Assembly: GCA_965660445.1 (NCBI GenBank)
Contig: CBFIAK010000001.1
Span: 352,001-416,000 of the forward strand
Direction: 5' to 3'
Length of the DNA stretch: 64,000 nt
Origin: Patescibacteria group bacterium
GTDB lineage: Bacteria > Patescibacteriota > Gracilibacteria > UBA4473
Shown here in pieces: positions 20,104-57,927 of this stretch. The position numbers were made by a program, and so were the translations under genes. Within the stretch, counting starts at the first letter, position 1. Every line of letters starts with the position of its first letter. The notes under the pieces were generated by a model. It did not search any database. It was not told the DNA's origin and saw only the letters and a list, made by a program, of their open reading frames with translations.

Positions 20104-20121
20104 TAATTAAATTTTTTTATC

Positions 20122-20379
20122 ATGACTAAATCAAACGCAAAAAAGGTTACTAGCAAAAAGGCTGCAACTGCTGCGAGCAAAACCTTAAAAGACGGCAGAA
20201 CTTCTAAAACTACCAAAAGTGCTGCTGGTAGTGCCCTTGCTCAACGCAAAGCACCGAAAAAAACAACAAGTAATAAAGCTGCAACTGCTGCCAGTAAGAC
20301 GCTGAGAACTAAATCCACAGCGAAAAAATCAAAGACTGCTGCTGGTAGTGCTTTAGCTCAAAAACCTAAGAAAAGATAA
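20122..20379 (+). CDS. Small basic K/A/T/S-rich protein with two 39-aa repeats
   Basis: KAATAASKTL...AAGSALAQ twice; stop overlaps next start (TAATG). Confidence 0.8.
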   Translation: MTKSNAKKVTSKKAATAASKTLKDGRTSKTTKSAAGSALAQRKAPKKTTSNKAATAASKTLRTKSTAKKSKTAAGSALAQKPKKR

Positions 20380-22309: not shown

Positions 22310-22375
22310 TGTGAACCGTCGACAATTTGTCGATAACTGAATTTATCAGTTTCTAATGCGAAAAATTAGCTTCAT

Positions 22376-22496
22376 TGATAAGTAAGGAGGGTTAGCGATG
22401 ATAAGTAAGGAATGCAGGAAATGATAAGTAAGGTATTTCTGTTAGTTAAAAATACTTGCATAAAAAAGCCTGTTTAGCTAAACTTATGATAAGTAA
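22376..22496 (+). promoter_or_regulatory. Direct-repeat array plus sigma70-like promoter upstream of fic
   Basis: TGATAAGTAAGG at 22376, 22399, 22422; TGATAAGTAA at 22487; TTGCAT(22456)-17 bp-TAAACT(22479). Confidence 0.7.
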
Positions 22497-22516
22497 TAAA
22501 AATTTATATTGAAAGT

Positions 22517-23680
22517 ATGAGTAACTCAAATTTGCAAATAACGATTCCCGATCCAACATGGGGTAGTAAGCTCGCCAATATTGTTTTGGATTTGGAAAAA
22601 TTGCGCTCAAAAAAGCTTCATGGAGAAGTTCCTCCGCATATCTTTTTTCAACTCAAAGACATCTTTCAAATTTTGGAAACTTTGGGTTCGGCGAGAATTG
22701 AGGGAAACAATACCACTCTTTCGGAATATGTGGAGAAAATCATAGAAAACAAGGCAAAGAAAGACGAAAGTCAAAAAGAAGTTTCCAATCTTGATGAAGC
22801 CATTAAATTTATTGAAGAAAATACAGACGAAGAAACAGTCCTTTCTCGGGCTTTTATTTCAGAGCTACATAAGATAATCACTCGAGACCTCACCCCTCCG
22901 CCAAGCGGAGAAGGATCAAACAATCCTGGGAATCTCCGCACGCACAATGTGCAAATCAAAAAGGCAAAACATACGCCCCCTGATTTTGCTGTTTTGCCCG
23001 ATCATTTTGAAGAGTTTTTAAAATTTATAAACAACACTTTTCCTGAGCAATATCAGCTCCTTATGGTGGCTATTGCTCATCATCGTTTTGCTTACATTCA
23101 CCCGTTTGATAATGGAAATGGAAGGATGGGAAGGCTTTTGAATTATGTGCTTCTTATCAAGCTTGGGTTTCGGGTGAAAAACGGAAGAATTATCAACCCA
23201 TCATCAGTTTTTTATACTGATCGAGATAAATATTACGATATGCTCGGAAAAGCAGATTCTTTGGAAAATGCTGATGTTTTAGAGTGGGCGGAGTATTTTC
23301 TTTTAGGACTTAAAAATGAAATTGAAAAAATTGATAGTCTACTGAGTCGCGAATATGTGCAGGAGAAAATTCTTTTACCAGCATTGGATTTTGCCCTAGA
23401 GCGTGAAAATATTACCGAACAAGAATTTAAGATTTTAAAATATCTTTTGCAAAAAGACGATATGGTTATCAAGTCTGAAGAACTCGATGAGTTTGGTATT
23501 GAGAATTCTGTGCAAAAATCCCGTATTATGGCTCGTCTTCGTGAAAAGAAAATAATTCACCCCCTCAAAAAAGGAGGGAGAATTTATACCATTAGTTTTG
23601 TGAATAATTACCTTTTGCGTGGAGTTATCAAAAGCCTTACGGATCAAGGTTTTGTTTCTGATTTTTTAAATACGAATTAA
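22517..23680 (+). CDS. Fic family protein
   Basis: HPFDNGNGRMGR Fic motif; SARIEGN inhibitory-helix motif; C-terminal wHTH-like region. Confidence 0.95.
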   Translation: MSNSNLQITIPDPTWGSKLANIVLDLEKLRSKKLHGEVPPHIFFQLKDIFQILETLGSARIEGNNTTLSEYVEKIIENKAKKDESQKEVSNLDEAIKFIEENTDEETVLSRAFISELHKIITRDLTPPPSGEGSNNPGNLRTHNVQIKKAKHTPPDFAVLPDHFEEFLKFINNTFPEQYQLLMVAIAHHRFAYIHPFDNGNGRMGRLLNYVLLIKLGFRVKNGRIINPSSVFYTDRDKYYDMLGKADSLENADVLEWAEYFLLGLKNEIEKIDSLLSREYVQEKILLPALDFALERENITEQEFKILKYLLQKDDMVIKSEELDEFGIENSVQKSRIMARLREKKIIHPLKKGGRIYTISFVNNYLLRGVIKSLTDQGFVSDFLNTN

Positions 23681-23683
23681 ATT

Positions 23684-26600: not shown

Positions 26601-26752
26601 TTGATGAAGCTGTGCGCACTACCAAAAAAGACGGCTGGCGTGGAAATCGAATCAAAGAGCGAGAAGTGAAAAATGCTCTTCGTAAATTTATCCAAGATGA
26701 ACATGCTCTGGAAAAATTATTTGAACTCATAAAAAACCAAGATGAATACTAA
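23684..26752 (+). CDS. hsdR: Type I R-M restriction subunit
   Basis: RPDIVLYVNGIALGVIELK nuclease, HTQGSGKS, DECHR, FTGTP, LLTGFDAP, QAICRVNR. Confidence 0.97.
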   Translation: MNSQSIKVGQIERLTQDRVVQFFQDSLGYDYLGDWQDRDGNSCIEEEYLRKFLVSQGYSDSLITKALYEINKVAGDQVKSLYDINKEVYSLLRYGVKVKEGVGENTQDVWLIDWKNPSKNHFAIAEEVTVQGQNTKRPDIVLYVNGIALGVIELKRSKVSVAEGIRQNLDNQKKLFIQGFFACMQYVMAGNDTEGLRYGTIETSEKYYLSWKESGTESNLLDRHIGQMCQKERFLELIHDFIVYDKGVKKVCRHNQYFGIKAAQDSLHRREGGIIWHTQGSGKSLTMVWLAKWIKENINDSRILIITDREELDDQIKKVFKGVGETDIHRTSSGNDLIKQLNLKEKSLLCSLVHKFGGKDEDGTDDYIAELKKNLPKDFKAKGDIYVFVDECHRTQSGKLHEAMKEILPNAVFIGFTGTPLLKKDKQKSIEIFGKYIHTYKFDEAVRDEVVLDLRYEARDIDQKITSQDKIDAWFDAKTRGLTDFAKVELKKKWGTMQKVLSSLSRLNKITSDILLDFETKPRLYDGSGNAMLVAGSIYEACKYYEIFQNHGFKKCAIISSYNPTVASIKGESTGEDEESDNLKKYEVYNRMIKQWFNYPENKALTDKDTEKFEDDIKKKFIEEPGQMKLLIVVDKLLTGFDAPSASYLYIDKNMQDHGLFQAICRVNRLDGESKEYGYIVDYKDLFKKLENAVGDYTSEAFDSFDAEDVEGLLKDRLEKGKERLDEALEVVRALCEGVAAPKQSPEYIAYFCGDDLKANEQKRVHLYKKTASLIRAYANLANEMQEAGYTEAEIAQIKKEVEHYKDVREEVQLSSGDYIDLKAYEPAMRHLIDSYISAEESEKISAFDDMSLLQLIVERGIDEAIKALPRSIGKHKESIAETIENNIRKLITDEQSVNPKFYERMSILLDELIEARRKSSINYQEYLKRVVELTKLVRGDEKESSYPSTLDGKAQKAIYDNLGQDEDLAIAIDEAVRTTKKDGWRGNRIKEREVKNALRKFIQDEHALEKLFELIKNQDEY

Positions 26753-27476
26753 AGTCATTCATAGCGAAATGTTGGTCGGCAACCTGCAGGTAAGCGTCTT
26801 GAAAAAGGCGGTGAAAAACCTGCATTTAAATGTGCTTCCTCCACATGGTAAGGTGCGTGTGTCTGTACCGCCAAGCATGGATGATGATGCGATCCGAGTA
26901 TTTATTGCCAGCAAAATACCGTGGATCAATAAGCAAATCGAAAAATTTAAAAACCAACCCCGAGAAAGTAAGCGAGAATTTATGACGGGAGAAAGCCATT
27001 ATTTTCAAGGGAAACGCTATCTTTTGCATGTTGTAGAGTCAGAAGGTCGGGCGAAGGTGGAAATCAGAAATAAGAAGTATTTGGATTTGCATATTTCCAA
27101 AGGTTCCAGCTCAGCGGAGCGAGAAAGAATATTGACCGTGTGGTATCGCAACGAACTCAAAAAACAAGTGCCTACATTGCTCGAGAAATGGGAGAAAATC
27201 ATGGGCGTAAAAGCCAATGAATGGCGAGTAAAGTATATGAAAACCAAATGGGGAACCTGCAATAGTCAGGCAAAACGAATTTGGCTCAACCTAGAACTCG
27301 CAAAAAAGCCCCTACATTGCCTTGAATACATCATTGTGCATGAACTAGCCCACTTGCTCGAAAGAAGCCACAACGAGCGATTTGTGGCCTACATGGACAA
27401 GTTTATGCCCGAGTGGAGAGTTCGAAAGGAGGAACTCAACAAATTCATCCTGACTTATGAGGAGTGGGGGGAGTGA
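26742..27476 (+). CDS. M48/YgjP (DUF45) metal-dependent hydrolase
   Basis: MKTKWGTC, YIIVHELAHL..H; typical hsdR neighbour. Confidence 0.92.
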   Translation: MNTKVIHSEMLVGNLQVSVLKKAVKNLHLNVLPPHGKVRVSVPPSMDDDAIRVFIASKIPWINKQIEKFKNQPRESKREFMTGESHYFQGKRYLLHVVESEGRAKVEIRNKKYLDLHISKGSSSAERERILTVWYRNELKKQVPTLLEKWEKIMGVKANEWRVKYMKTKWGTCNSQAKRIWLNLELAKKPLHCLEYIIVHELAHLLERSHNERFVAYMDKFMPEWRVRKEELNKFILTYEEWGE

Positions 27477-27492
27477 AATTAATTCAAAAAAT

Positions 27493-29475
27493 ATGAGAAT
27501 ACATAAAATCAACGTCATCAATTACAGGTTGTTAAAAGATTTTTCTATCGATTTGGCAGAAGATTTCTCTTTGGTAATTGGGAAAAATAACACGGGGAAA
27601 ACATCATTTCTCCAAATTTTACAAAAATTTCTATCTGCAAACTCAAATAATTTTAGTTTTGAGGATTTTCATGTTGATATTCAAAAGGATATTTCCCAAA
27701 AAATAGAAGCTACAGATGAATTAGCAGAAGAAAACTATGAGGAGCCCAAAATAAAATTACTGATTGCTATTGAAAGAGATGACAATGATAGTCTTGAGAA
27801 TATCTCTGATTTGATTATTGACCTAGATCCAAACAACAAAACCTTGCTTTTATCTTTTGAGTACGCTCTTAATTTTGAAAACTTTATAAAAATTAGAAGT
27901 GATTTTAAGGATCATCACTTGGAAAGAGTTGCTGATTTTTTGAGTAAACATCATAAAGCTTATTTCAAAATTAAAAAAAGTGTTATTGATAAAAATGATG
28001 AAGATAATTTCATAGAAATTGAGGACTCTAAGCTCAAGAGAATTATAAATATTCAGACAATCTCTGCTAAACGAGATGTTTTAAATGAAGATGGTGAGGA
28101 TTCCAAATCTAACAATGCCTTATCAAAATTATCGTATAAATACTATGAGCCATCCAAAAATTCTAATGCTCCTCATGTAATTGATCTACAAAAAAAATTA
28201 ATTGAAACAGATAATAACTTAACTCAGTCCTATGAGGGTATTTTTAAGAAAGTAACAGAAGACGTAAAAAAATTCAGTTATAGCGGATCAAAAATTTTCG
28301 TTAAATCAAATTTCCAAGAAATAAGCCTTTTAAAAGAAAACACTTCTGTCGTTTATGACGAAAAGGGATGCCACTTACCTGAGGATCATAACGGTTTGGG
28401 ATATATGAATCTGTTTGCAATGATTTTCAAATTGCACATTATTTTTGATGAGTTCAAAAAGGTTCATTCTGACTCTAAAATGGCAGATATAAACTTACTT
28501 TTCATTGAAGAACCTGAAGCGCATACTCATCCACAAATGCAGTATGTCTTTATTAAGAATATTAAAAACTTCTTAAGTGAAAATAAAGAAAGTTTGAATT
28601 TGCAAACAGTAATCACAACTCATTCTGCACATATTGGATCTCAGAGTGATTTCAGTGATATAAAATATTTTCTTTGTAGAGATGATCGGGTTGTTGTAAA
28701 AAATCTATCCATCTTGGAGGATAAATACGGAAAAGACGATGAAGGTAAGGCAAGTTTTAAATTCCTAAAACAATATCTAACCTTGCATAGGGCGGAACTC
28801 TTCTTCTCTGACAAAATTATTTTTATTGAGGGTGATACGGAAAGGATTTTGTTGCCAGCTATGATGAAAAAGCTTGATGACGAAAATAAAGAGACGGAAG
28901 GTTTTAGCCCATTATTATCTCAAAAAATATCGATTATTGAGGTTGGTGCGCACTCCAAATTATTTGATAAATTCCTTGAGTTTTTGGAAATTAAAACCTT
29001 AATTATTACAGATTTAGATTCTGTAAAAGATAATGGTGCAGGTAGAAAAGAATCGTGCAAAGTCTCAGAAGGAACAGATACTTGTAATTCTTCCATTAAG
29101 CATTATTTGCAAGGAAAAAACTGGGATGATTTAAAAAGTATTACGAATGAGCAAAGAGTTGTGACTAGAGAAAATACAGAAATATACATAGCTTATCAGT
29201 CAGAGGAAGAAAGTTATCAGGCAAGATCTTTTGAAGATGCTTTTTTGAGCCTTAATCTTGAGTTTATCAAATCAAAAAAGGATGATTTTAATAGCTTGAA
29301 AAATATAAATATCATAGATTCAACTACACCTGATTATTTCGAGATTGGAGAAAAATGCATTGATAAAAAGACGGAATTTTCAACGGATATTTTATTTTAT
29401 TCTGATGAAGGATTTACGAATTGGAAAACACCTGCATATATTAATAATGGATTACTATGGCTGATGAAAAAATAA
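27493..29475 (+). CDS. OLD-family ATP-dependent nuclease (GajA-like)
   Basis: GKNNTGKT, IEEPEAHTHP, TTHS, TOPRIM FIEGDTE and ITDLDS; start moved to MRIHK. Confidence 0.92.
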   Translation: MRIHKINVINYRLLKDFSIDLAEDFSLVIGKNNTGKTSFLQILQKFLSANSNNFSFEDFHVDIQKDISQKIEATDELAEENYEEPKIKLLIAIERDDNDSLENISDLIIDLDPNNKTLLLSFEYALNFENFIKIRSDFKDHHLERVADFLSKHHKAYFKIKKSVIDKNDEDNFIEIEDSKLKRIINIQTISAKRDVLNEDGEDSKSNNALSKLSYKYYEPSKNSNAPHVIDLQKKLIETDNNLTQSYEGIFKKVTEDVKKFSYSGSKIFVKSNFQEISLLKENTSVVYDEKGCHLPEDHNGLGYMNLFAMIFKLHIIFDEFKKVHSDSKMADINLLFIEEPEAHTHPQMQYVFIKNIKNFLSENKESLNLQTVITTHSAHIGSQSDFSDIKYFLCRDDRVVVKNLSILEDKYGKDDEGKASFKFLKQYLTLHRAELFFSDKIIFIEGDTERILLPAMMKKLDDENKETEGFSPLLSQKISIIEVGAHSKLFDKFLEFLEIKTLIITDLDSVKDNGAGRKESCKVSEGTDTCNSSIKHYLQGKNWDDLKSITNEQRVVTRENTEIYIAYQSEEESYQARSFEDAFLSLNLEFIKSKKDDFNSLKNINIIDSTTPDYFEIGEKCIDKKTEFSTDILFYSDEGFTNWKTPAYINNGLLWLMKK

Positions 29476-31052
29476 AACCTATCGAGCAAATAGAACAATG
29501 CATTAAGGCAAAAGATAATTTTGTTTTAAATGGAGGCGCAGGAAGTGGAAAAACAAAAACGCTTATTGATGTTTTGGATTTATTATATTCAATTGATTCT
29601 GCTTGTAAGATTGCGTGTATCACTTTTACAAATGTAGCTGCAGATGAAATTTCGAATAGGGTTGCTAATAAGAATATTCAACTCAGAGCTTCAACGATCC
29701 ATGACTTTCTTTGGGATATCGTTAAAAATTATCAAAAAAATCTAAAAATAGCTCTTATTGAGCTGATTGATTCTGGAAAAATTTCATATAAAGGGGAAGA
29801 AACCTTAAATAATGATTGGTTCAAAGGAAAAACCATTGATTATCGTGAATGGAAAAAAATTGAAGATGGAATAATTTCACATAATGAGGTTTTGCAATTG
29901 GCAAATAAGCTTTTTCAAGAATTTCCGCTTTTGAGAAAGATCTTAAAAGACAAATACGATGTAGTTTTGATTGATGAATATCAGGATACAGAAAAACAAA
30001 TTATTGAAATTTTCCTCAATTTTTTACAGGAAGATAAAGGAGATTTTATCGTTGGTTTTTTTGGGGATTCAATGCAAGCAATTTATAACAAGGGTATCGG
30101 TGATTTATCGGAGTATGTAAATGCTGGCATAGTCAAAGAGGTGCAGAAAGAAGATAATTGGAGATGTTCAAAAAGCGTGATTGATTTAATTAATAAAATT
30201 CGAAATGACGGACTTGAGCAAAAATCTGCAGGAGATAATGTAAATGGGAAAATAACCTTTTTATACAGCAATACAAATGAGTTCGATATTCAGGAAATTA
30301 AAAAGCATGACGCTTTTAGTGATTTTGATTTTGAAAACGTTGCTGAAAACAAGGAGCTTTACTTGACTCATAAACTAATTGCCACTCAATTTGGTTTTAA
30401 GAATCTTTTAGAAAAATATGAATATACGGAGAATTTAATGGGTGATAATCCTGATCGGTTATCAAAACATTTGTTTAGAATACAAGAGATTATTCATCTT
30501 TATCAAAATAGACACTTTAATGAATTCATCAAAAAAACCGATTACAAGGTTATTAAAAATAGCGATCTCCAATTACTGAAAGACAGTATTGAACAACTTG
30601 TTGATTGTTCCAAGAAGACAATTGAAGAATCTATAAATTTAGCTGACGAACTTAAGCTTGTAATAAAAGATGATAGATTGAACAATTTTATCGTCGAACA
30701 TGAAGAACAATACAATGCAATTAAAGATCTGTCATATGGCGAGATAGTGAATGTTTTTAATTATAAAAATGAGCACTCTCCATATTCAACACAACACGGC
30801 GTAAAAGGAGCGGAATTCGATAATGTTTTTGTCATTCTAGATAATGGAAAGTGGAATCAATACAATTTTACTCATTTATTCAAATTAACTTCAGGAAAAG
30901 AAGATATTATAGAAAGAACAAGAAAAATGTTTTATGTTTCATGCTCTAGGGCAAAAAAGAACCTTGTGGTATTTTTTCCAAATCCTGATGTCCATGTTTT
31001 GGATCAAGCTCGAATATGGTTTGGCACCAAAAATGTTGTTGAAATAGAATAA
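29457..31052 (+). CDS. UvrD-like helicase (GajB-like)
   Basis: GAGSGKT, ITFTN, DEYQD, GDSMQAIY, HGVKGAEFD, YVSCSRAK; overlaps the OLD gene. Confidence 0.92.
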   Translation: MADEKIKPIEQIEQCIKAKDNFVLNGGAGSGKTKTLIDVLDLLYSIDSACKIACITFTNVAADEISNRVANKNIQLRASTIHDFLWDIVKNYQKNLKIALIELIDSGKISYKGEETLNNDWFKGKTIDYREWKKIEDGIISHNEVLQLANKLFQEFPLLRKILKDKYDVVLIDEYQDTEKQIIEIFLNFLQEDKGDFIVGFFGDSMQAIYNKGIGDLSEYVNAGIVKEVQKEDNWRCSKSVIDLINKIRNDGLEQKSAGDNVNGKITFLYSNTNEFDIQEIKKHDAFSDFDFENVAENKELYLTHKLIATQFGFKNLLEKYEYTENLMGDNPDRLSKHLFRIQEIIHLYQNRHFNEFIKKTDYKVIKNSDLQLLKDSIEQLVDCSKKTIEESINLADELKLVIKDDRLNNFIVEHEEQYNAIKDLSYGEIVNVFNYKNEHSPYSTQHGVKGAEFDNVFVILDNGKWNQYNFTHLFKLTSGKEDIIERTRKMFYVSCSRAKKNLVVFFPNPDVHVLDQARIWFGTKNVVEIE

Positions 31053-31243
31053 TTGTTTGATTTTGGCATAGGTTGTGATACCATTTTGGTACGGAATTTC
31101 TAATTTTTAGTAGTTGCGCAGAGTCTTAAAGACTAACTCGTTTCCGCTTAGCGGAGGCAAGGAGAGTTGGTATTTTTGCGTTTAAATTTACGCAACTTCT
31201 CTCACTTCTCACACGGAGCCCCCCCCATTATTAAGCCAAAATT

Positions 31244-31595
31244 ATGCAAGGAAAAAAGACTACATCTCGGGATAAGAAACGCTTTCTTGATGCCTTCAAG
31301 CGAAGACATGGAATTGTCACACTTGCTTGCAACGACGCAGGTATCTCAAATTTTACTTTTTATAAGTGGATGAGAGATGATCCTGAATTCGCAGAACAAG
31401 CCGAAGAAGTCCGCGACATTGAGATCGGGATCATTGCCGAAGACCGTCTTGCCGAAGCCGATCATCGTGCATAAAGACATGGCGATGGTTCGGTTTTACC
31501 TGCAATCACGAAATCGCAAATATATGCAAAAAATTCAAACAGAAATCCATGATCCAACCAAAGAGCTGGCGGATCTGCTCTGTTTGGATGAGTAG
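31244..31595 (+). pseudogene. Frameshifted terminase-small-subunit-like HTH gene
   Basis: KKRFLDAF..GIVTLAC..AGIS..TFYKWM..DPEF..AEDRL continues in another frame as IIVHKDMAMVRFYLQSR; one extra base near 31460. Confidence 0.65.
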
Positions 31596-31609
31596 AAATT
31601 AACCAACCA

Positions 31610-32335
31610 ATGAAATATAAAGATGTAATCACAAACGAGGCACACGTTCGCCCACAGGCGCGAATGAATCCCTTTGACCTAGTTGTTAGCCAATACTGGG
31701 GCAAGCCAAGCACACAGGCCGTATTTCGGGCTTTATTTCAAAAGGTGAAGCAACTTCCCTTTGATACTTTGTACATTACTTGGAATAATGCCGACTTTCG
31801 CAGATCTTTCTTGCAATCTGGTGTTGATTTGGAGTATGTCTTTTTTGAGCTTTGCAATCTTTCGGAAGAAGCTTGTTTGGATGAGGAAGAATCTCGCTTT
31901 GTAATTCACGATACTGGATTTTTGTGGAAAAATAATCCGAATGGTTCGCTTACCTTTTTCATTTCTGATCGCGAAAAAATGGAGGACTTTTTGGAAAGCA
32001 AGCAGGGAGTTAGATTCAAGGTTTATCCACACAAAACACAGAGATACAAAGATATCACTTTTGACCTAACTACAGGAGAGATTTTTAAATCAGGCAAGCA
32101 GATAGATAAAATTGAACTAGGTACTGACTACGAAAAATTAATCAAACTTCTGCTTGAAAATCGTGGGTATAATTTCTCATATTTGGAATTAGCCCGAACT
32201 TTGGGGATAGAGCAACTTTATACGAGAAATAAATTTGATACAGAAAAATCAATCAGCACCAAATTTTCTCGGCTCAATGCCAAGTGTCGTGAGAAAGTTT
32301 TTCAGTGCAATAACGGCTACTTTGTGGCTATTTAA
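31610..32335 (+). CDS. Hypothetical protein with C-terminal winged-helix (OmpR-like) domain
   Basis: KLIKLLLENRGYNFSYLELA...ISTKFSRL...NNGY. Confidence 0.65.
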   Translation: MKYKDVITNEAHVRPQARMNPFDLVVSQYWGKPSTQAVFRALFQKVKQLPFDTLYITWNNADFRRSFLQSGVDLEYVFFELCNLSEEACLDEEESRFVIHDTGFLWKNNPNGSLTFFISDREKMEDFLESKQGVRFKVYPHKTQRYKDITFDLTTGEIFKSGKQIDKIELGTDYEKLIKLLLENRGYNFSYLELARTLGIEQLYTRNKFDTEKSISTKFSRLNAKCREKVFQCNNGYFVAI

Positions 32336-32426
32336 AGCACTTGCGAAAGGATGACGAAACGATGTGGGTGCCTTTTTGTAGTGCTCAAATGACAATGTGT
32401 GCGAGTTCAACAAAGTAACCGCACAT

Positions 32427-32612
32427 ATGAATCGAGATGTAAAAAGACAAGACGGGCAAGATATGACCTCCTCGCAGAAAGAGAAACTGCGAGAGATTTT
32501 TGCATGTCGCTACGAGCGGGAGCTTGATGACCAAGAACTTTTTGAAATCCACTTCAATTTGAAGCGGTTTTTCAGTCTGCTTGATAAGTTCGAGTCAGGC
32601 AATGATTTATAG
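32427..32612 (+). CDS. Small hypothetical protein
   Basis: Co-oriented ORF in replication module; start uncertain. Confidence 0.55.
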   Translation: MNRDVKRQDGQDMTSSQKEKLREIFACRYERELDDQELFEIHFNLKRFFSLLDKFESGNDL

Positions 32613-32631
32613 CCTTTAATTTTTTTACACT

Positions 32632-32877
32632 ATGACAAACATTGAAAACCTCTACCAAACTTCCGATTGGTACCTCTGTGTATTTTTAATCGCACGAGAG
32701 CATGAACTCATCGACGTCGATCGACGAGATGGTAAGCGATGTAAATTCATTTTTGAAGATGATTTTGACCTCCAAAGTGATGTACGAGGCTTTTGGGGAA
32801 ATGAGGATATTGGTGTGCAGGATTTTGTGGCTGCGGTAAAAAAAGCAAAATCAATTCTCTATTCCGATAGCTATTAG
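32632..32877 (+). CDS. DUF5659-like small protein
   Basis: YQTSDWYLCVFL..L..VDR....KFIFE pattern. Confidence 0.65.
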   Translation: MTNIENLYQTSDWYLCVFLIAREHELIDVDRRDGKRCKFIFEDDFDLQSDVRGFWGNEDIGVQDFVAAVKKAKSILYSDSY

Positions 32878-32928
32878 ACGTCTATAAGCCGTCTATTAGT
32901 CGTCGCAAACTTTTTAAGATAAAGATAT

Positions 32929-33690
32929 ATGGATCACGAAAATTTCACCAGAATCCCCAACGATGTCCTCGAAGAGGCAATTGGCAACAAAGCGATGTGT
33001 GCAAGAGCACGCGTTTTTATGGCTATTTTGCGGAAAACTTACGGCTGGAATAAAAAGGAAGACTGGATCGCTTTATCCCAATTTGAGAAGATGACGGGAA
33101 TCAGTAAAGCGAATATTTGCCGAACTCTCAGGCAGCTGACCGCCCTAAAAATCATTATCAAATCTGACAACAAATACCGCATAAATCCCATTGGTAAGAC
33201 GTGGGAGTCATTATCAAATATGACAAAGAAAAAGCCCGTTATCAAATCTGATAAACCCCTTTGTCAAAACGGACAATCTCCTTTGTCGGATATGACACCC
33301 ACAAAAGACACTCTTACAAAAAACACTTTTTTACAAAAGAAAGATAAAACCTTGCAAAATTCTTTTGCAAGGGAGCTCTCAAATAAAATGACTAAAAAAC
33401 ATTTTGATTTGTTTTATAGGCACTTCCCAAAGAAAGGGAAAAAGAAAACTTCAGAAAGAAGATTTATGAAACTCGACCGTTCAAGATTCGGGCTAATCAT
33501 GACCGCGATGTGTTCCAAAATAAACACTCCAACTTGGAATATAAACAGAAAACAATACACGCCATACGCCAGCGATTGGATTGCGGGCGATATGGAAGAA
33601 GATATTGCTGCGCTGGATTTGGAAAATCCTAGATACAAAACATTGTTTGAATGTTATTCCGATGAAAAATATCACGGAATCTTTGAATAA
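32929..33690 (+). CDS. Phage replication initiator (lambda O-like N-terminal domain)
   Basis: FTRIPNDVLE..RVFMAILRKTYGWNKKEDWIALSQFEKMTG. Confidence 0.9.
   Translation: MDHENFTRIPNDVLEEAIGNKAMCARARVFMAILRKTYGWNKKEDWIALSQFEKMTGISKANICRTLRQLTALKIIIKSDNKYRINPIGKTWESLSNMTKKKPVIKSDKPLCQNGQSPLSDMTPTKDTLTKNTFLQKKDKTLQNSFARELSNKMTKKHFDLFYRHFPKKGKKKTSERRFMKLDRSRFGLIMTAMCSKINTPTWNINRKQYTPYASDWIAGDMEEDIAALDLENPRYKTLFECYSDEKYHGIFE
33155..33298. repeat. Five palindromic iterons inside the replication gene (probable origin)
   Basis: TTRTC-N6-GAYAA-like 16-mers at 33155, 33211, 33239, 33261, 33283, then A-rich tract. Confidence 0.75.
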
Positions 33691-33747
33691 CTTGCTATTC
33701 CCACCCCTTCGAGCAATGTATACCTAACAACATTTATAAGAATACCC

Positions 33748-35580
33748 ATGCAGAAAACCATACTTTATTGCCGTAAATCTACGGAGTCGGATGAACGCCA
33801 AGTGCAGTCGCTCGACGATCAAATTTCCGAGATGAAAGAGTTTGTAACCCGCTTTAACACGGGCTTTGCTCGCACACCCGATGATCAACTCAAGCTCATC
33901 AGTACCAAGACGGAAAGCTTTTCCGCCAAGATGTGTGGCAGGCGCAAGGTGTTCAACGAGGTGATGACAGAGGTAGAAAACGGGCAATGTGACTGCATTC
34001 TAGTGTGGTCAATCGATCGTTTGTCTCGGAATGTGGGAGATGTGGAGCGAGTTATTGCCTTATTGGAATGCGGACTCCTCAAACAAATCCGTACACCGAG
34101 CCAAGAATTCAAAAATGAGCCGTTTCACAAATATATGCTCGTGCAGGCGGTGGCGAATGCCAAACTAGAGAACGATCAAAAAGGTGTAAATGTGGTGCGT
34201 GGGCTGAAATCCAAAATCCGAAGCGGAGACTGGATCGGCTGGGCGCGAATCGGCTACGAAAACTTTGGAAACAAAAAGGGGCAAAAATGGGTGGATAAAG
34301 ACGAGACTCGTTGGGAAGTTGTGAAAAACTGCTGGGATATGTTTGCGACGGGGAGTTATTCCGTTCCGCAAATCAAAGAATATGCCGAGAAAATGGGGCT
34401 TCGTGCCAGACCGACTCGCAGACAACCTGAAGGCTCAATGGTCGGGATCAACACTTATTACGGCATGTTTCGCAATCCTTTCTATATGGGCAAAATGCGG
34501 ATTGGTAATTCACACAGCGGAAAAGGCGTGAAGATTTTTGCCGAAGCCAAAGAGCTGCTTACCCGAGGCGAGATCGAGGGCGAACTCTGCGAAGACTGCG
34601 TGGTAGTCGAAGCCAATCATCCGCCGATGATCAGTGAAGAGATGTTTTATAGGGTGCAAGAAGTACTCAAACAGCGCGGCCTTGCCCATCACACGGCGAG
34701 GAAACGCATTCACAACTATCTTTTTGCGGGAGCGATCCATTGCAAAAAATGCGGATGTGCGACCGTAACCGAGGAAAAGCGGAAATACAAATGCTCACAT
34801 TGCCATAAATGGTTTACACGATCTAAAAATCACCCTCTACCTCTTGATTGTCCGAAATGCAAAGAATCCATCACCGAAGAAACAAGAGAAAGTGTTGTAA
34901 TCCACCGATATGTCCGCTGTACGGGGCATAACAAAAACAAAAAGCCCTGCTCGCAGGGAGAATGCCAAAACGGAAGTTACAAAAGAACCGCTGTAGAAGC
35001 CGAGATTTGCCAACAAATCGAGGATTATCTCGATAGCCTATCGATTTCCCCCGAGATTCTCGAATATGCTCAAGAAACTCTCCGTGACGAGCATTTCCAA
35101 AAGAAGGTACTGGAAAACAAATCATTACAGAATCTGCAAAAAGATCACCAGCTCATCAAGAATAAGCTCGATAACTTACTCGAGATGAGGCTTGCGGGTG
35201 AGATAGAAAGCGACCTGTTTGCGCAGAAAAAGGCGGATCTCACTACAAAGCAAGATGAGATCATGAAACAAATCCAAAAGCTCAACGATAAAAACACCGA
35301 CTGGGTCGAACAAGCCGATAACTGCCTGAATCTGGCTAACAGAGCCAAAAGAGCATGGAAGAGCGGATCAAAACAGCTAAAACGCGAAATCTTGAAAAGT
35401 TTGAGTTCGAACGCGTATTTAGTGGATGGAAAAATCGAACTGGAATTGCGGAAACCTTTTGACACACTGCTTATTCCGCGACTTGACGAAGACAAGAAAA
35501 AAGCACAGAAATCTCTTTCTGCGCCTGAATTTTCTAACTGGCTCCCGGGGTCGGGTTCGAACCGACGGCCAAGTGGTTAA
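33748..35580 (+). CDS. Large serine recombinase (integrase)
   Basis: YCRKS catalytic motif, DRLSRN, recombinase domain (RNPFYMG, HPPMISEEMF), Zn-ribbon CxxC motifs, coiled coil. Confidence 0.95.
   Translation: MQKTILYCRKSTESDERQVQSLDDQISEMKEFVTRFNTGFARTPDDQLKLISTKTESFSAKMCGRRKVFNEVMTEVENGQCDCILVWSIDRLSRNVGDVERVIALLECGLLKQIRTPSQEFKNEPFHKYMLVQAVANAKLENDQKGVNVVRGLKSKIRSGDWIGWARIGYENFGNKKGQKWVDKDETRWEVVKNCWDMFATGSYSVPQIKEYAEKMGLRARPTRRQPEGSMVGINTYYGMFRNPFYMGKMRIGNSHSGKGVKIFAEAKELLTRGEIEGELCEDCVVVEANHPPMISEEMFYRVQEVLKQRGLAHHTARKRIHNYLFAGAIHCKKCGCATVTEEKRKYKCSHCHKWFTRSKNHPLPLDCPKCKESITEETRESVVIHRYVRCTGHNKNKKPCSQGECQNGSYKRTAVEAEICQQIEDYLDSLSISPEILEYAQETLRDEHFQKKVLENKSLQNLQKDHQLIKNKLDNLLEMRLAGEIESDLFAQKKADLTTKQDEIMKQIQKLNDKNTDWVEQADNCLNLANRAKRAWKSGSKQLKREILKSLSSNAYLVDGKIELELRKPFDTLLIPRLDEDKKKAQKSLSAPEFSNWLPGSGSNRRPSG
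35497..35524 (-). terminator. Element-supplied tRNA-Asn terminator antisense to the integrase 3' end
   Basis: Minus strand GCGCAGAAA-GAGA-TTTCTGTGC-TTTTTT, 14 nt after the tRNA CCA. Confidence 0.7.
35529..35545. repeat. Right att core (17 bp)
   Basis: ATTTTCTAACTGGCTCC; includes last 7 nt of tRNA-Asn. Confidence 0.92.
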
Positions 35581-53340: not shown

Positions 53341-53889
53341 ATGAAAGTTCAATTTTATGGCGATGATTGTTTTTCTGTGAAGACGAAAGCGAATATGTGT
53401 GTGTTTTATCCAACAGACGCATGGAAAACAAAAGTTGATATTGCTTTTTTCCCACGGAACGAAAAAAAAATAAAGGTTGAATACGCAAAAAAAACAATTG
53501 ATTTGCCCGGAGAGTTTGAAACATCTGGAGTGTTGGTACGAGGTTTTTTAGCTGATGATAGAGCGAATGTGATTTATAAAGTGGTTATGGATGATATCTC
53601 AAGTGTGTATTTTGGAAACCTTCAAACCATGCCATCGAAAGAGATAATGAAAAAAATAGGAGAAAATATTGATATTGTGTTTATCAATCTTAATAGCGAG
53701 TTTCATGGAAAAAAAGTGAGAGAGTTTCTTGAAACGCTTGATCCTCGATTTGCTTTTTTAGGAGGTGATACGCAATATTTTCCCAAGATGGTAGAGTTGG
53801 GCGCTAAAAATGAATCAGAATTACCAGCCCTTACAAAATCAATGATGCAAGAAGAAAAGTTGGATATAGTTATTCTTCCAACAGTTTAA
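53341..53889 (+). CDS. MBL-fold hydrolase-like protein (metal motif degenerate)
   Basis: YGDDCF, PGEFETSGV, YFGNL, IDIVFI, LDPR pattern; HxHxDH absent. Confidence 0.65.
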   Translation: MKVQFYGDDCFSVKTKANMCVFYPTDAWKTKVDIAFFPRNEKKIKVEYAKKTIDLPGEFETSGVLVRGFLADDRANVIYKVVMDDISSVYFGNLQTMPSKEIMKKIGENIDIVFINLNSEFHGKKVREFLETLDPRFAFLGGDTQYFPKMVELGAKNESELPALTKSMMQEEKLDIVILPTV

Positions 53890-53890
53890 A

Positions 53891-55915
53891 TTATTCTTGT
53901 GCAAGGAGCGTTTCGGTTTGAAAAGAATCAATTTTCGGAAGCACAACTATGAGTACATCATTACTTGCTTCTCCTACAAGATCACGGGTAACATATGATA
54001 CTGAGTCTTGAAGGATATGAATACATCCAAGGCTAGTTCCTTGTGTTTTAGAAAGAATTCGGTTTTCTTGTGTTTGGTAATATTTTTTAAGTGGGGAATG
54101 AACCATGATTCCATTTCCAGCAGAGACTTTTAGTTCTTGAGCTTGTTTTTGGTGTGCAGGGAGTGGATAATTGAGATGGAGTGACGATTTTACTTTTTCT
54201 CCATAAGACTGCCGAGCATTAAAAATACCTAAAGGGGTAGTTCTATCACCTTCTTTGACTTTATCAAAAAAGACGCTTCCCCATTGCCCTTGCCCGCTGA
54301 TTATTTTTTTATCGAGTTTTCCGTTTTTAAAAACATAGGTTTGGTAGTTTTCTTTATCAACAATAAGAACATTCCCAGATTTACTTTTTTGAGTGAGTTG
54401 TTGAATATGTGTCTGTGTGACAGAGACTTTTCCTTCTGGAGTGGTAAAATTTATATTTTGATACACCTTTGGGTATATACCTTCAAAATTATAAAAATCT
54501 GATTCTTGTTGTATTCGCAGTATTTTTTCTGCAGGACTCATTGCCTGAATAAATGGAGTGAGTTTTGTGTCTCTGTGTGAAACAGGGTTTTCTTTTGCTT
54601 TATCAATGAAGTATTGATTGAGTTGAAGTATGTCTTTTTGGTCAAGATTTTCTTTTTTTGAGAGTGTGTGAAGAACTTTTCTTTTCTTTGATTTTTCTTT
54701 CTGAATAAATGTACGAATAGATTCAGAAGTCCAGTCAATTTTTTCTTCTGGATTTTCTGCTGAAATAAGAGAGATATAGTCTTTATCAATATTGAATAAA
54801 TAGTCATTATCCATAAAGAATGAAATATCTTGAATAGAAAAATTATGTTTTAATATGTTTGTATAAAGAGATTTTCCTTGTTCTGCACGATGGAAACATT
54901 GTTCGATATTATGAAGTGTCTGTAAATCTTGAATTTTGTTTCCGAGTGAGGTGATGGAACTTTTAAAATTTTGAATGTAGAGAGGAGAGAGGTTTGTGTT
55001 TTTAAGTGTATCGTATTTTTGAATGAGTTTTTGTATTCCTTGTTGGAACTCTTTTTCTGTTATTTCTGGGTCAATATCGGTTATCTTGTCTTCTTCGTTT
55101 TCGGATTCTAATGTTCCGTCCATATCTTCTTCTATTCCGTTTAAGTTTAAGAATTCAATTATTTTTGCAAGAATCGATAAAAACGTATTACTTGATTCGT
55201 TTACTTCGTTTGATTCAATCATCTTTGATGGAAAGAGTGCGTTTTGAGTGTTGAGGTTTTCTCGAATACTTTTTTCTTCTTCTGGAGAAAGCGGACGACC
55301 TTTTTCAAGACTTCTTTTATCAATACTATGAGCGAGTGCAATGTCATACAGGAAAGATTTTTGTTTTGCAATACTGTGTTTTGTATCAGGGGCGAGAGAA
55401 TAGTGAATAAGGTTGGTGAGTTCAGATCCGATCATTTTTTGGGTTTCAGATTCTATGTTTTTTATTTCCGATTGTATACGAGGAGAGTCTTTGTATTTCT
55501 CGAGTATTTTTGATTCTTTTTCCTGAAGAATATTATCATTTTCTTTTGGGTCTAATGTGTTTATTTCTTCAAAAAAGGAATAATATCGAAACTCTTCTTG
55601 CACTCTCTCTGGACTCCATGTGTTGAGTTGTTGTGCAAAATATGTTTTATCTTCAGGTACTGTAAAATTTTGTTTTTGAAGAATGTATTCTTTTTGTTGT
55701 TTCAGTACAGCCTCATTGAGATGTGTTAATTTTTCTCGTGTTTGGGTTGTGTTTTCTTGAATTTCTTGTGTGAGAGTTTGTAGACATTCTCCGATAGCGT
55801 GCAAATCGTTTCCTGTATAGTCTTTGAGTGCTTTTGCAAGGTCTTTTTGGGAAAGATTGAGAAGGTTTTGAGCTATTGCTTGAGGATCAAACGATGATTG
55901 AGATTCAAATGACAT
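53891..55915 (-). CDS. Helical protein with C-terminal L,D-transpeptidase (YkuD) domain
   Basis: LIVDK, KEGDRTTPLG, LNYP, GNGIMVH...SLGCI. Confidence 0.85.
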   Translation of the reverse strand: MSFESQSSFDPQAIAQNLLNLSQKDLAKALKDYTGNDLHAIGECLQTLTQEIQENTTQTREKLTHLNEAVLKQQKEYILQKQNFTVPEDKTYFAQQLNTWSPERVQEEFRYYSFFEEINTLDPKENDNILQEKESKILEKYKDSPRIQSEIKNIESETQKMIGSELTNLIHYSLAPDTKHSIAKQKSFLYDIALAHSIDKRSLEKGRPLSPEEEKSIRENLNTQNALFPSKMIESNEVNESSNTFLSILAKIIEFLNLNGIEEDMDGTLESENEEDKITDIDPEITEKEFQQGIQKLIQKYDTLKNTNLSPLYIQNFKSSITSLGNKIQDLQTLHNIEQCFHRAEQGKSLYTNILKHNFSIQDISFFMDNDYLFNIDKDYISLISAENPEEKIDWTSESIRTFIQKEKSKKRKVLHTLSKKENLDQKDILQLNQYFIDKAKENPVSHRDTKLTPFIQAMSPAEKILRIQQESDFYNFEGIYPKVYQNINFTTPEGKVSVTQTHIQQLTQKSKSGNVLIVDKENYQTYVFKNGKLDKKIISGQGQWGSVFFDKVKEGDRTTPLGIFNARQSYGEKVKSSLHLNYPLPAHQKQAQELKVSAGNGIMVHSPLKKYYQTQENRILSKTQGTSLGCIHILQDSVSYVTRDLVGEASNDVLIVVLPKIDSFQTETLLAQE

Positions 55916-55921
55916 GTTTTT

Positions 55922-57760
55922 TTATTGAGTAAGTGTTTTTTGTACGTTTTCTTTAATGCGGATAATTCTATCAATACTGCTATCAGAGCTTCCAAACTGA
56001 TTAAATGGCACTTCGTATACTCCTTCACGAGATCCAGAAGAATCCATGACGGTCAGGGGAAGTCCTTTGTCATCAACACCAGTAACTATCCCGATATGAC
56101 GAACGCTTTTGTTTTTATTGATAGTGATAATATCGCCCACTTCAAATATGTATTCTTTTTTGTGTACGTTTTGGCGAGTTGTTGATACGAGTTTCTGTGT
56201 ATAAAAGATATCGGTTTCTTTTTCAGCCCATAGTTCCAACGCCCATGTTCGGTCTTGGTTATTCGGGTCTTCTTTTGTTCCCGTGATAGTGAGGAGTCCA
56301 GATGTATCTATTCCAAGTGTTTTGAGTGTTTCTGTGACAAAACGAGCACAGACCATTGGCATTTTATCACTTTGTACGTTTCGTTTTAGTTTTTTATTGT
56401 ATGTAGTGTAGTATCCTTCATTGTTTGTGCGGAGTGAGTCTGCGTTGGCAAGGGCTGGTCCATTCTTTGTGTATATACGGGCATATGGATGACCTTTGTA
56501 GTTCGATGCAGAATCAAGTATTGCTTTTTTAAACTCGGCTTCATAGGAAAGCGATTCGGGTTCAAGCGTTTGTATAATACTTTCAGAAGTTAAATCGATA
56601 ACAGTTTTTTGGTGAAGATATATTTTTTCGTTTGGCGTAATGGTGAGCGATTCTCGGTTTATATTGAGGAGGGTAAGTGCTTTGAGAGAAAGATTTTTTT
56701 CAATAGCTTTTTGTGCTAAAATGTCTCCGGCAAGAGCTTTTACAAAAAAACTTTCAATATTATTGATTGTGTTTTCAGATTCTGTGTTTGCCGGTAGATT
56801 CTTGATGCTTTTTTCAAAGTCATTCAATCGGATAGTAATATCAGGATGTCTTTGTATTTGAGTGTATATTTTTAGTATGTGTTCTTTTTTGGCATCGATT
56901 TCCTTTTTTTCAATCGGTTTTACAACGTCTGGGATTGGTTTTTGTAATTCTTGTATAGCGTTCGTTTTTGTTTCTCGTGAGTCAGTTTCTGGTTTTTCAT
57001 TGAGGTTTAGATACCCAATAACTTGTTCTAAAATACCAAGAAACATGTTTTGTCTATTGGTGTTGATTGATGCTGGTGCTTTTGGGTCTGTTTCGCTGAC
57101 TAATCGGTAGAGCGGAATTCTTGATAAATCTTTTTGATTCTCGTTTGTTTTATCTTTGTTTGATTCTTTATATTTTTGCTCGATAACTGTTTTTATCGTA
57201 TATAAGCTTGGCAAGTCTCCGCTCTGATTTGGGGTAAGTCGTTTATATTGGTTTTGAAGTCTGTTGATAGATTCCTCAATAAGTGGGTTTGGTGTTTGTG
57301 TATGACCAATGGTGTCAAGAAGTGTTTTTTCTTTCTTTTTTATTTCAGCGTCATTGGGAATTGGTTGTGTTTCCGCATGAATTTCTTCAAGTTTTTCAAA
57401 AAACTTATAAAACCCAAACTCCGTACTTATACTCTCAGGGCTTCGTTTTCTGAGGTTTTCTTTGATATGGTTTTGTGTTTTTTCATCAAAATGAGAACAC
57501 CGAGAGAGAAGATATTCTCTTTGAGTGTTGGTAATAATTTCTTTCAGATTATTCAGGTTTTCTTTTGTTTGCGTGAGTGTTTCTTTTTTTTCAAGTGATA
57601 GAGTTTGAAGATGAGACTGGAGAATTATAATTTCTTTTGGAGAATAAGACTGTAGAGCAATCTTTTGTTCTTCTGGTGTCATAAATATGAGTTGACTACA
57701 GACTGATTCTTTATTGAAAGAATCAGCTTGTGTTTCAGGGGACTTATTTTCAGATTGCAT
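55922..57760 (-). CDS. Helical protein with C-terminal NlpC/P60- or CHAP-like cysteine hydrolase domain
   Basis: ASNYKGHPY, VCARFV, VGDII, HIGIV. Confidence 0.78.
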   Translation of the reverse strand: MQSENKSPETQADSFNKESVCSQLIFMTPEEQKIALQSYSPKEIIILQSHLQTLSLEKKETLTQTKENLNNLKEIITNTQREYLLSRCSHFDEKTQNHIKENLRKRSPESISTEFGFYKFFEKLEEIHAETQPIPNDAEIKKKEKTLLDTIGHTQTPNPLIEESINRLQNQYKRLTPNQSGDLPSLYTIKTVIEQKYKESNKDKTNENQKDLSRIPLYRLVSETDPKAPASINTNRQNMFLGILEQVIGYLNLNEKPETDSRETKTNAIQELQKPIPDVVKPIEKKEIDAKKEHILKIYTQIQRHPDITIRLNDFEKSIKNLPANTESENTINNIESFFVKALAGDILAQKAIEKNLSLKALTLLNINRESLTITPNEKIYLHQKTVIDLTSESIIQTLEPESLSYEAEFKKAILDSASNYKGHPYARIYTKNGPALANADSLRTNNEGYYTTYNKKLKRNVQSDKMPMVCARFVTETLKTLGIDTSGLLTITGTKEDPNNQDRTWALELWAEKETDIFYTQKLVSTTRQNVHKKEYIFEVGDIITINKNKSVRHIGIVTGVDDKGLPLTVMDSSGSREGVYEVPFNQFGSSDSSIDRIIRIKENVQKTLTQ

Positions 57761-57927
57761 TTATAAGAGAGTGGCAAGAATCTTATTATAATATCACAAA
57801 CTCATATTTTTATCAATATTTTTTTACGAAAAAGAGATAAAAAACAATTGTAATCTGCTGAGTTTAGACTACTATTTTTTTAGTTTTTATCTTTTTAATT
57901 CTTTTTACTTTTTAATTTTTATTACAG

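Follow-up and report, generated by a model that had tools for sequence, protein, structure and literature searches.

The locus described here raises the question of how an ultra-small bacterium, one of a group with a presumed life on other cells, might bring wall-cutting enzymes to their substrate when these enzymes possess no recognizable leader. It consists of two adjacent genes on the minus strand of a stretch of 64,000 nucleotides (hereafter, the window; contig CBFIAK010000001.1, positions 352,001 to 416,000, assembly GCA_965660445.1) from a Patescibacteria group bacterium of the gracilibacterial lineage UBA4473, whose genome of 0.99 Mb is referred to below as the source genome. The gene p2 (55922..57760, 612 amino acids; open reading frame (ORF), Pfam, AlphaFold2 model, and fold match) encodes an N-terminal module, in the following called the N-module, and a domain of the NlpC/P60-CHAP fold, whereas the gene p1 (53891..55915, 674 amino acids; ORF, Pfam, N-module model, and YkuD alignment) encodes a second N-module and a YkuD-type domain. 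There is nothing unusual about the catalytic domains themselves; the peculiarity lies in their packaging, in that two wall enzymes, which are fused in relatives, are found on two copies of a module without known family or fold. Our interpretation, held tentatively, is that p1 and p2 are stem-peptide enzymes on a paralogous carrier module and are exported independently of the Sec and Tat pathways to cut wall peptides. Taken on its own, an action of the pair outside the cytoplasm of its producer is fairly probable.

Paralogous N-terminal modules and distinct catalytic domains

Residues 2-400 of p1 align to residues 7-395 of p2 with 24% identity (103 of 423 columns; BLASTP, composition adjusted, expectation value E 1e-21). 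Because K, E, Q, N and L abound in both regions, a shuffle control was run, in which the Smith-Waterman score of 291 stood against 62 +/- 10 in 200 shuffles (maximum 89; z 22.5). An earlier interpretation of the window made without database searches (the sequence-only reading) had pointed to four shared motif pairs in the N-termini of the two genes, and all four are present in this alignment. It had also described a divergence of the two proteins into YkuD and NlpC/P60-CHAP domains, which agrees with C-terminal parts that are unrelated to each other in the shuffle control (z -1), with Pfam matches above the cut-offs, and with a fold match of p2 at Z 10.3.

The catalytic domain of p2 comprises residues 406-608 (55937..56545, minus strand; VIA-align, Foldseek, and alignment), with Cys471, His555, and Asp573 as the putative triad. 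Concerning Pfam, Amidase_6 (PF12671, residues 450-575) passes marginally (24.7 bits at a cut-off of 23.2), DUF1287 (21.6 vs 25) and CHAP (18.9 vs 26) fall short of theirs, and NLPC_P60 is absent from the list. The model of this domain, with a predicted local distance difference test score (pLDDT) of only 36-78, is matched in VIA-align by 7v6s_A (Z 10.3, root-mean-square deviation (rmsd) 3.2, 118 aligned residues), by MepS 8xud_I (Z 9.9, rmsd 3.7, 137 aligned), and by CHAP endolysins (Z 9.5-10.2). Each of the first 37 rows is a papain-like amidase or peptidase, including Tse1 (Z 8.9) and Tae3 (Z 6.7), which are effectors of type VI secretion systems (T6SS). Foldseek assigns Spr/MepS with a probability of 1.00, a template modelling (TM) score to the target of 0.57-0.62, and E 0.02-0.1. 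In the alignment, equivalents of Cys471 and His555 are kept in all five sequences that bear the domain; the third triad position is occupied by Asp (Asp573) in p2 and in its ortholog P0005 (see below), and by His in the relatives from genomes G066, G030, and G025. The protein p2 is thus predicted to be an NlpC/P60-type cysteine peptidase or amidase, with a triad proposed from the alignment.

The C-terminal unit of p1 spans residues 450-674 (53894..54568, minus strand; Pfam and alignment) and starts with an 'AMSP' helix common to the fused relatives treated below. The YkuD family (PF03734, residues 515-635) scores 32.1 bits (cut-off 23.4; E 2e-7), and TPLG (560-563), His606 (GIMVHS), and Cys631 (SLGCIH) are in register with the YkuD domains of seven relatives. 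A genome-level search of the source genome for the YkuD family gave no match and missed even p1, which marks p1 as divergent and means that other divergent copies are not excludable by that search. The closest solved sequences, both of them weak matches, are 4XZZ (E 0.017) and 7O21 (E 0.019), i.e., Csd6 and Bd1075, which are L,D-carboxypeptidases (PMC8938487). The second residue after the catalytic Cys (Cys+2) is Arg in most transpeptidases and is replaced in hydrolytic members (PMC8938487). With Csd6 and Bd1075 as nearest solved sequences and with no Arg at Cys+2, a hydrolytic role of p1 similar to that of L,D-carboxypeptidases appears more likely than cross-linking by transpeptidation; the missing Arg argues against a cross-linking role, not against the YkuD fold.

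Architecture of the N-module

Two separate AlphaFold2 predictions were obtained, one for full-length p2 (alignment of seven sequences, mean pLDDT 64.7) and one for residues 1-408 of p1 (four sequences, mean pLDDT 70), such that both models are shallow (4-7 sequences, pLDDT 65-70, predicted TM-score 0.33-0.42). They exhibit the same layout, consisting of a helical domain A, less confident helices, a disordered acidic linker, and an alpha/beta domain B; all coordinates in this section refer to the minus strand. In p1, domain A (residues 7-155, 55451..55897, pLDDT 80-92) is predicted to be all-helical with a long helix of about 46 residues (35-81). In p2, domain A and the adjoining variable helices extend over residues 14-200 approximately (57161..57721), likewise with a 46-residue helix (41-86), and with a pLDDT of 63-83 per 10-residue block, save 57 at residues 151-160.

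The following linker of 60-80 residues has a pLDDT below 50 in p1 (residues 224-283, 55067..55246) as well as in p2 (residues 201-282, 56915..57160). It holds a conserved amphipathic helix with a motif common to both proteins (N-x-FL-x-IL-x-x-II-x-FLNLN), which according to DSSP on the models is situated at residues 245-258 in p1 (NTFLSILAKIIEFLNLN; 55142-55183) and at residues 233-248 in p2 (NMFLGILEQVIGYLNLN; 57017-57064). Domain B, of around 115 residues, is predicted as alpha/beta with a pLDDT of 60-90; delimited by the models and the alignment, it comprises residues 287-407 in p1 (54695..55057, 60-87 per 10-residue block) and residues 283-400 in p2 (56561..56914, 64-90 per 10-residue block). 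The similarity between p1 and p2 is strongest in domain A (z 24 for p2 1-165 against p1 1-160), reaches z 9.8 in domain B (residues 285-400 approximately), and is marginal in the stretch between the two domains (z 2.8, shuffle control).

No known family or fold could be assigned to the N-module. Pfam lists none up to E 1 for either protein, NCBIfam contains nothing for p1 and, for p2, a single family at E 0.8, and no PHROG family is found for p1, p2, or P0005. Among sequence profiles of the PDB, a MarR regulator is the best match, but at E 0.007 and worse it was rejected as a relative. The search of the ESM Atlas gave no usable match, and none of 48,161 chains reached Z 8 in VIA-align (best Z 6.0, rmsd 4.4, 63 aligned). 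In Foldseek, the best match in the PDB had E 0.32, and the viral structure library contained none at E <= 0.001, with TM-scores of at most 0.15. Given the shallow models, this absence of a fold match is no proof of a new fold. A LysM identity of domain B was also considered and rejected: the Atlas values of 0.75-0.77 lie below the level often reached by shuffles, and neither the PDB profile nor Pfam (E 10) is supportive. The N-terminus is therefore undescribed, as had been stated from the sequence, in Pfam, NCBIfam, PHROG, PDB sequences, and folds. No description of the N-module was found in print either, which is weak evidence, as the literature searches were not designed for an unnamed domain.

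Distribution of the N-module

The N-module is a near-orphan. In the source genome, it occurs in p1 and p2 only. An exhaustive HMMER search of 1.84 billion representatives yielded three proteins, namely p1, p2, and P0005 (E 1.8e-5). The latter, a protein of 619 amino acids encoded as a singleton on one contig of 2,576 bp, shows 39% identity to p2 over residues 292-602 (E 1e-67) and is its ortholog. Two scans of metagenome contigs, one of them with P0005, and a scan of genome contigs gave no match; word-indexed homologue searches with the N-module and with p2 plus P0005 returned the queries only, and the domain-B profile, run against longer lengths, recovered only its four input sequences.

Concerning related genomes, the N-module profile matched two of 61 relatives, one being the source genome itself and the other G005, and three of 401 genomes of the class, the third being G013; the domain-B profile matched one of 401 genomes of the phylum, again the source genome. 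The match in G005, a transmembrane protein of 600 amino acids (E 0.004; 3e-5), was not accepted as a family member and is read as a chance match of helical, charged regions. In G013, which belongs to the same family of genomes, a leaderless ORF of 1086 amino acids contains domain B in the middle of the protein (profile E 2e-6; hhalign E 0.002 over 105 columns), and its sole match back in the source genome is domain B of p2 (E 2.8e-5). The known family thus consists of four proteins from three sources, in approximately 1.8 billion representatives and about 860 related genomes. The sequence-only reading had counted a restriction of the N-terminus to the two genes as speaking against it, and the distribution comes close to this: within the genome there are just two copies, and only two further proteins exist elsewhere. 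It had also suggested listing the C-terminal domains joined to the N-terminus across the genome and its relatives: P0005 turned out to carry the same C-terminal domain as p2, and G013 contributed a further domain B.

The gene in G013 is the first of three co-oriented genes (L010:5242-11654, minus strand), encoding proteins of 1086 amino acids, 138 amino acids, and 909 amino acids with hydrophobic stretches, none of which has a Pfam family; the 909-residue protein, used as query, has no counterpart in the source genome. An SLT-like N-terminus of the 1086-residue protein is a visual impression only: Pfam lists none at E <= 0.1, PHROG endolysin matches weakly (E 0.0027), and the PDB sequence match was spurious.

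Between p2 and P0005, the catalytic domain is well conserved (z 84, 49% identity) and domain B is recognizable (z 15.9), whereas domain A is not (z 1.7), such that domain B is the best-kept part of the N-module across the family. Possible causes of this mosaic pattern, which rests on three sequences and does not allow the candidates to be separated, are that the tandem copies underwent gene conversion, that one lineage had its domain A replaced, or that both copies track a common genome-specific partner or each other. The pattern in domain A would fit a common partner specific to the genome or mutual pairing of the two modules.

Fused and leaderless relatives

Two genomes of the same family contain both catalytic units in a single ORF, in which YkuD is directly followed by the p2-type Cys/His domain (G030, L012:1372-2748; G025, L013:2-2068). 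The P60-like unit is matched at E 3e-14 and 2e-13, respectively, and YkuD and DUF1287/Amidase_6 are seen by Pfam. The fusion of G025 additionally carries PG_binding_1 (E 1.8e-14) and ERLRLEKEK repeats. A third genome, G223 (L018), contains a contig-end fragment of the fusion, which is 67% identical over the first 237 residues, including the YkuD part. The N-module was not found in the fused proteins; within the family genomes, only G013 and G005 matched its profile besides the source genome. In the G025 gene, the ERLRLEKEK-type repeats are accompanied by a run of N, and the assemblies seem to break inside this gene.

Linking segments common to p1/p2 and the fusions, i.e., '(G/A)MSP' before YkuD and '...GHPY' before the Cys domain, indicate that the source genome holds both halves of the fusion, with a separate N-module in front of each. 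The fusion in G030 and G025 and the PG_binding_1 domain in G025 further suggest that these catalytic units belong with the polymeric wall.

Short YkuD proteins of the family in G002, G035, and G234 begin with RR-type signals, and G012 (L021) and G023 (L025) contain leaderless proteins of around 512 amino acids, which resemble p1 in layout: their N-region is long and hydrophilic or helical, and the YkuD domain at their C-terminus keeps SHGC. Their N-regions were tried as relatives of the N-module and are unrelated to it (hhalign E 0.44 and 0.55). These cases give a hint that leaderless YkuD proteins recur in the family. Two matches in other genomes of the class (L023 in G252 and L024 in G169) contain 5 and 11 in-frame TGA codons, respectively, an indication that TGA codes for an amino acid in parts of the class; the family of the source genome itself reads cleanly under table 11.

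Leaderless state and candidate export route

Leaders and transmembrane segments were called from Kyte-Doolittle hydropathy only. The best 19-residue window reaches 1.22 in p1 and 0.98 in p2, in neither case near the N-terminus, so that no transmembrane segment or leader is indicated. In the first 70 residues, the best 15-residue window scores 0.38 in p1 and 0.61 in p2, compared to 1.62-3.02 in four leader-bearing proteins of the window. This is in accordance with the sequence-only reading, which had noted neither a Sec signal nor a transmembrane segment in the two proteins. A missed upstream leader is unlikely, since each ORF already takes the first start available after a stop and is conserved from about residue 7 onward.

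The ordinary wall enzymes of the organism differ in this respect. Leaders or transmembrane segments are present in the SLT, RlpA/SLH/CAP, fn3, and FecR-like proteins of the window, in a PG_binding_1 protein beside a VirB4-like gene, and in every other wall or surface protein checked in the source genome. As p1 and p2 lack the Sec leaders which those enzymes carry, the N-module may replace the leader. The finding of fused relatives with PG_binding_1, of leaders on ordinary wall enzymes, and of type IV secretion system (T4SS)-like ATPases lends support to a wall-directed and non-Sec function. The sequence-only reading had gone further and inferred an export or targeting module, possibly directed against a host cell, which for p1 and p2 is a candidate function.

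Concerning possible routes, TatC was not found in the source genome. It does encode a VirB4/TraG-type ATPase (PF19044, E 4e-23; C2:54693-56777) within a T4SS-like region (C2:53759-58012), in which a sortase gene and the gene of a Sec-signal protein carrying two PG_binding_1 repeats lie on either side of the VirB4-like gene. Two TrwB/VirD4-like coupling-protein homologs are encoded at C1:182100-184673 and C1:249329-251839, one of them with two N-terminal transmembrane-like segments and the other without, and a PilB-type ATPase is also present. According to a survey of 2025, a monoderm-type T4SS is widespread in Patescibacteria, without relaxases and without key conjugation components; in most cases the coupling protein is encoded at a distance from virB4, and in one cultured species the peptidase and lysozyme genes adjoining virB4 are essential (PMC12102498). 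In the available part of that source, no substrate of this T4SS is named (PMC12102498). Type II and IV secretion proteins have been seen in proteomes of Gracilibacteria (PMC11452946). A T4SS route for p1 and p2 is accordingly possible, and nothing more.

For pairing of the two modules, a prediction of the N-module heterodimer gave a score of 0.32, compared to 0.00 for the best of three controls, which is weak support; at least 78% of contacts recur between the runs, and the pLDDT of the partner does not fall below 68. Of 157 solved complexes, 116 passed the mark for this score, as did two of 215 mismatched pairs; at 0.60 or under, the passing cases were just 18 of the 157 solved complexes and both of the mismatches. 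These calibration counts hold only roughly here, as the heterodimer was predicted from its own shallow alignments. The predicted pairing is therefore treated as a lead.

Comparison with known systems

The arrangement shares features with several known systems but differs from each of them. The fused YkuD plus NlpC/P60-like proteins of G030, G025, and G223 possess the same two catalytic units and linking helices as p1/p2, but as one polypeptide, without the N-module, and with the Arg of YkuD retained (CIR), whereas p1 has His. The wall enzymes CwlO, PcsB, RipA-RipC, and Cg1735 contain their parts in the same order as p2 and match its catalytic fold (Z 7.5-8.7); they are, however, conserved enzymes of growth and division with Sec signals, whereas p1 and p2 are leaderless and accessory.

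Leaderless proteins with the same two folds are used against the walls of other cells by the T6SS, i.e., Tlde1 (YkuD fold) and Tse1/Tae (NlpC/P60-like), and by the T4SS of Xanthomonas and Stenotrophomonas (X-Tfe). These effectors are small or possess known delivery domains, have immunity genes, are usually encoded near the apparatus, and occur in diderms, none of which is seen for p1/p2. For Tlde1a, both L,D-carboxypeptidase and exchange transpeptidase activities are described (PMC9638812). Csd6, Pgp2, and Bd1075 resemble p1 in the His/Cys pair and in a residue other than Arg at Cys+2, but all three have NTF2-like domains and Bd1075 a predicted Sec signal (PMC8938487), whereas p1 has neither and possesses in addition a His-Cys loop of 25 residues.

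VirB1-type hydrolases (TraG of pIP501, PrgK of pCF10) are CHAP-type wall hydrolases serving a T4SS, and the source genome contains VirB4- and VirD4-like genes; these hydrolases combine a glycosidase with CHAP within the T4SS cluster, whereas p1/p2 have no glycosidase and are unlinked to T4SS genes. The gene adjoining the VirB4-like ATPase of the source genome encodes the Sec-signal PG_binding_1 protein, not p1 or p2.

The term 'polymorphic-effector architecture', applied to the pair in the sequence-only reading, fits loosely at best: no known trafficking domain or immunity gene was found, and the N-termini are far from near-identical with an abrupt break before the enzyme domain. In polymorphic toxins, the N-terminus is better conserved than the toxin domain; here the pattern is the reverse, with N-modules only 24% identical and an N-terminus less conserved than the catalytic domain between orthologs.

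Proposed mechanism and alternative explanations

According to the interpretation proposed above, p2 (NlpC/P60-type) and p1 (YkuD fold) would each be borne by one copy of the N-module, and the two carriers may pair, thereby bringing together both activities that relatives fuse. The N-module would stand in for the leader, export would proceed by a Sec- and Tat-independent route, for which the T4SS-like ATPases of the source genome are candidates, and the target would be wall peptides, with those of another (host) cell more probable than those of the producer. A more specific version, in which the N-module is a carrier domain for the relaxase-less monoderm-type T4SS or another Sec-independent route, and in which p1 and p2, as its first candidate substrates, pair via domain A and attack stem peptides of the host wall at the contact site, is quite improbable as a whole.

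Several points weigh against export. Export of p1 and p2, like their pairing, route, and target, is inferred, and the family of four proteins is too small to compare one module with many cargoes. No secretion gene is linked to the pair in the 64-kb window, and the T4SS-like genes are situated elsewhere, either on a different contig or at a distance exceeding 100 kb. Signals for T4SS are C-terminal or internal, whereas the N-module is N-terminal. No known trafficking domain is found in p1 or p2 (Pfam to E 1; NCBIfam), and no immunity gene lies downstream among ORFs of at least 60 amino acids, the next gene being an opposite-strand ORF of 182 amino acids weakly resembling metallo-beta-lactamases. 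According to the calibration of the prediction tool, a weak complex score such as that of the heterodimer is, without a strong prior, more often wrong than right. The fused ORFs of G030, G025, and G223 all run into contig ends, such that their true N-termini and possible leaders are not visible. Concerning p1, its signature is SLGCIH and not the canonical SHGC[IV]R, with a His-Cys spacing of 25 compared to 16 in signal-bearing relatives with SHGCIR, and given this departure its activity is uncertain. Finally, there is no sign of recent acquisition, as the G+C content at third codon positions of p1 (0.24) and p2 (0.28) equals that of neighbouring genes (0.24-0.30).

The lack of a leader or transmembrane segment in p1 and p2 would also be explained if the pair remained in the cytoplasm and served muropeptide salvage, an L,D-carboxypeptidase converting tetra- to tripeptides and a gamma-D-Glu-diamino-acid endopeptidase acting next, with the N-module as scaffold for both steps. 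Recycling by a cytoplasmic L,D-carboxypeptidase and an endopeptidase has precedents in the ykfABCD operon of B. subtilis and in LdcA/MpaA of E. coli. The two activities would be consecutive, relatives fuse both domains, and the weak similarity of p1 to Csd6 (4XZZ) and Bd1075 (7O21) at E values of around 0.02, together with the missing Arg at Cys+2, points in the same direction; an SBP_bac_5 oligopeptide-binding protein in the source genome (E 1e-49) also speaks for this and against export. Salvage of imported wall peptides could feed a bacterium with poor biosynthesis. On the other hand, PG_binding_1 in the G025 fusion points to a polymeric wall substrate, a fast-diverging module of 400 residues with a disordered linker of about 60-80 residues is unusual for a metabolic enzyme, and the pair is not conserved in relatives of the same lifestyle (three of 401 genomes of the class, including the source genome and the spurious match). 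Moreover, Csd6 and Bd1075 match weakly, and a Sec signal is predicted for Bd1075 (PMC8938487). Altogether, we consider cytoplasmic salvage less likely than export, yet a serious rival to it. An export-based function and salvage differ in what the locus would offer: if the module is a carrier, it would provide tangible access to the way in which such bacteria deliver enzymes to the wall of their partner, and if the pair is cytoplasmic, it would form a compact muropeptide-salvage unit. The four-protein family limits generality under either reading.

A function on the wall of the producer itself, in the manner of CwlO, PcsB, and RipA, is unlikely. The N-module would then inhibit catalysis and dock on a membrane regulator, e.g., FtsEX, with export by an unrecognised route. 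The combination of a long helical N-region with a C-terminal NlpC/P60 domain resembles CwlO, RipA, and Cg1735 (fold matches to 8wt3, Z 8.6, 4q4t, Z 7.5, and 8auc, Z 8.7), two ORFs of the source genome exceed the cut-off of the FtsX family (PF02687; 77.6 and 38.9 bits), and the pair is set among housekeeping genes. According to hydropathy, however, p1 and p2 lack the signal peptide that CwlO, PcsB, and RipA have; the pair is not conserved in relatives, unlike what would be expected of a core division autolysin; the searches found no similarity in sequence or fold between the N-module and the coiled coils of those enzymes, an absence which is weak evidence; and the helices of p1 are predicted to pack as a domain (pLDDT 80-92). 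Highly improbable, in turn, is a domesticated remnant of lysins from phages or mobile elements (virion- or conjugation-associated hydrolases). Such lysins are naturally leaderless and frequently form the end of long helical proteins, leaderless modular lysins with PG_binding_1 are typical of phages, the N-terminus of the leaderless 1086-residue protein of G013 weakly matches PHROG endolysin (E 0.0027) and virion-protein (E 0.0015) families, and long-helix phage proteins (tape measure, ejection) are among the non-significant structural matches. The PHROG searches with p1, p2, and P0005 themselves were negative, however, no tblastn match for p1 or p2 exists in 50,697 phage records, the viral structure library provided nothing at E <= 0.001 or at TM-scores beyond 0.15, and both the housekeeping neighbours and a third-position G+C content like theirs argue against such an origin. 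Export on the N-module as carrier is thus the explanation preferred here, with the reservations given above.

Genomic position and surroundings

The stop of p2 and the start of p1 are separated by a spacer of 6 bp (55916..55921, minus strand; ORF coordinates), which contains no terminator-like site on the minus strand, and the two genes are probably co-transcribed. The top promoter-like site of the region (TTGATA, 17 nt, TATTAT, with TG; 10 of 12 consensus positions; 57788..57816, minus strand) is a candidate for the operon promoter. It is situated 28-56 nt upstream of p2 and constitutes weak evidence, as promoter-like sites are not enriched in the region (17 vs 15 +/- 3.5 in shuffles).

The neighbours of the pair are the housekeeping genes infC, rplT, holA, tsaE, ssb, and ndk. 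In all three complete relatives examined, the block ssb-(ndk)-RlpA/SLH/CAP-fn3-rluB is kept, with ndk absent from the block in G016. The synteny stops exactly upstream of ssb, at the site of the pair, and no homolog of p1 or p2 is found at that site in any of the three. Given two copies in the genome, their absence from the ssb-ndk block of relatives, and the synteny breakpoint, the pair is accessory. On the other side, an ORF of 182 amino acids (53341-53889, plus strand; Lactamase_B_3 at E 2.7e-4, below the cut-off) is convergent with p1, its stop being 1 bp from that of p1.

At some distance from the pair, the window contains a defence and mobile island (17716-35580), with a G+C content down to 0.306 at 28-30 kb. 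It comprises a type I restriction-modification system (HsdM, 17716-20103; HsdS, 21143-22309; HsdR, 23684-26752), a Fic protein (22517-23680), a YgjP-like peptidase, a Gabija-like pair at 27457-31052 (an OLD-family AAA_15/TOPRIM ATPase, then a UvrD-type helicase), a phage Rep-O-like protein (32929-33690), and a large serine recombinase (33748-35580).

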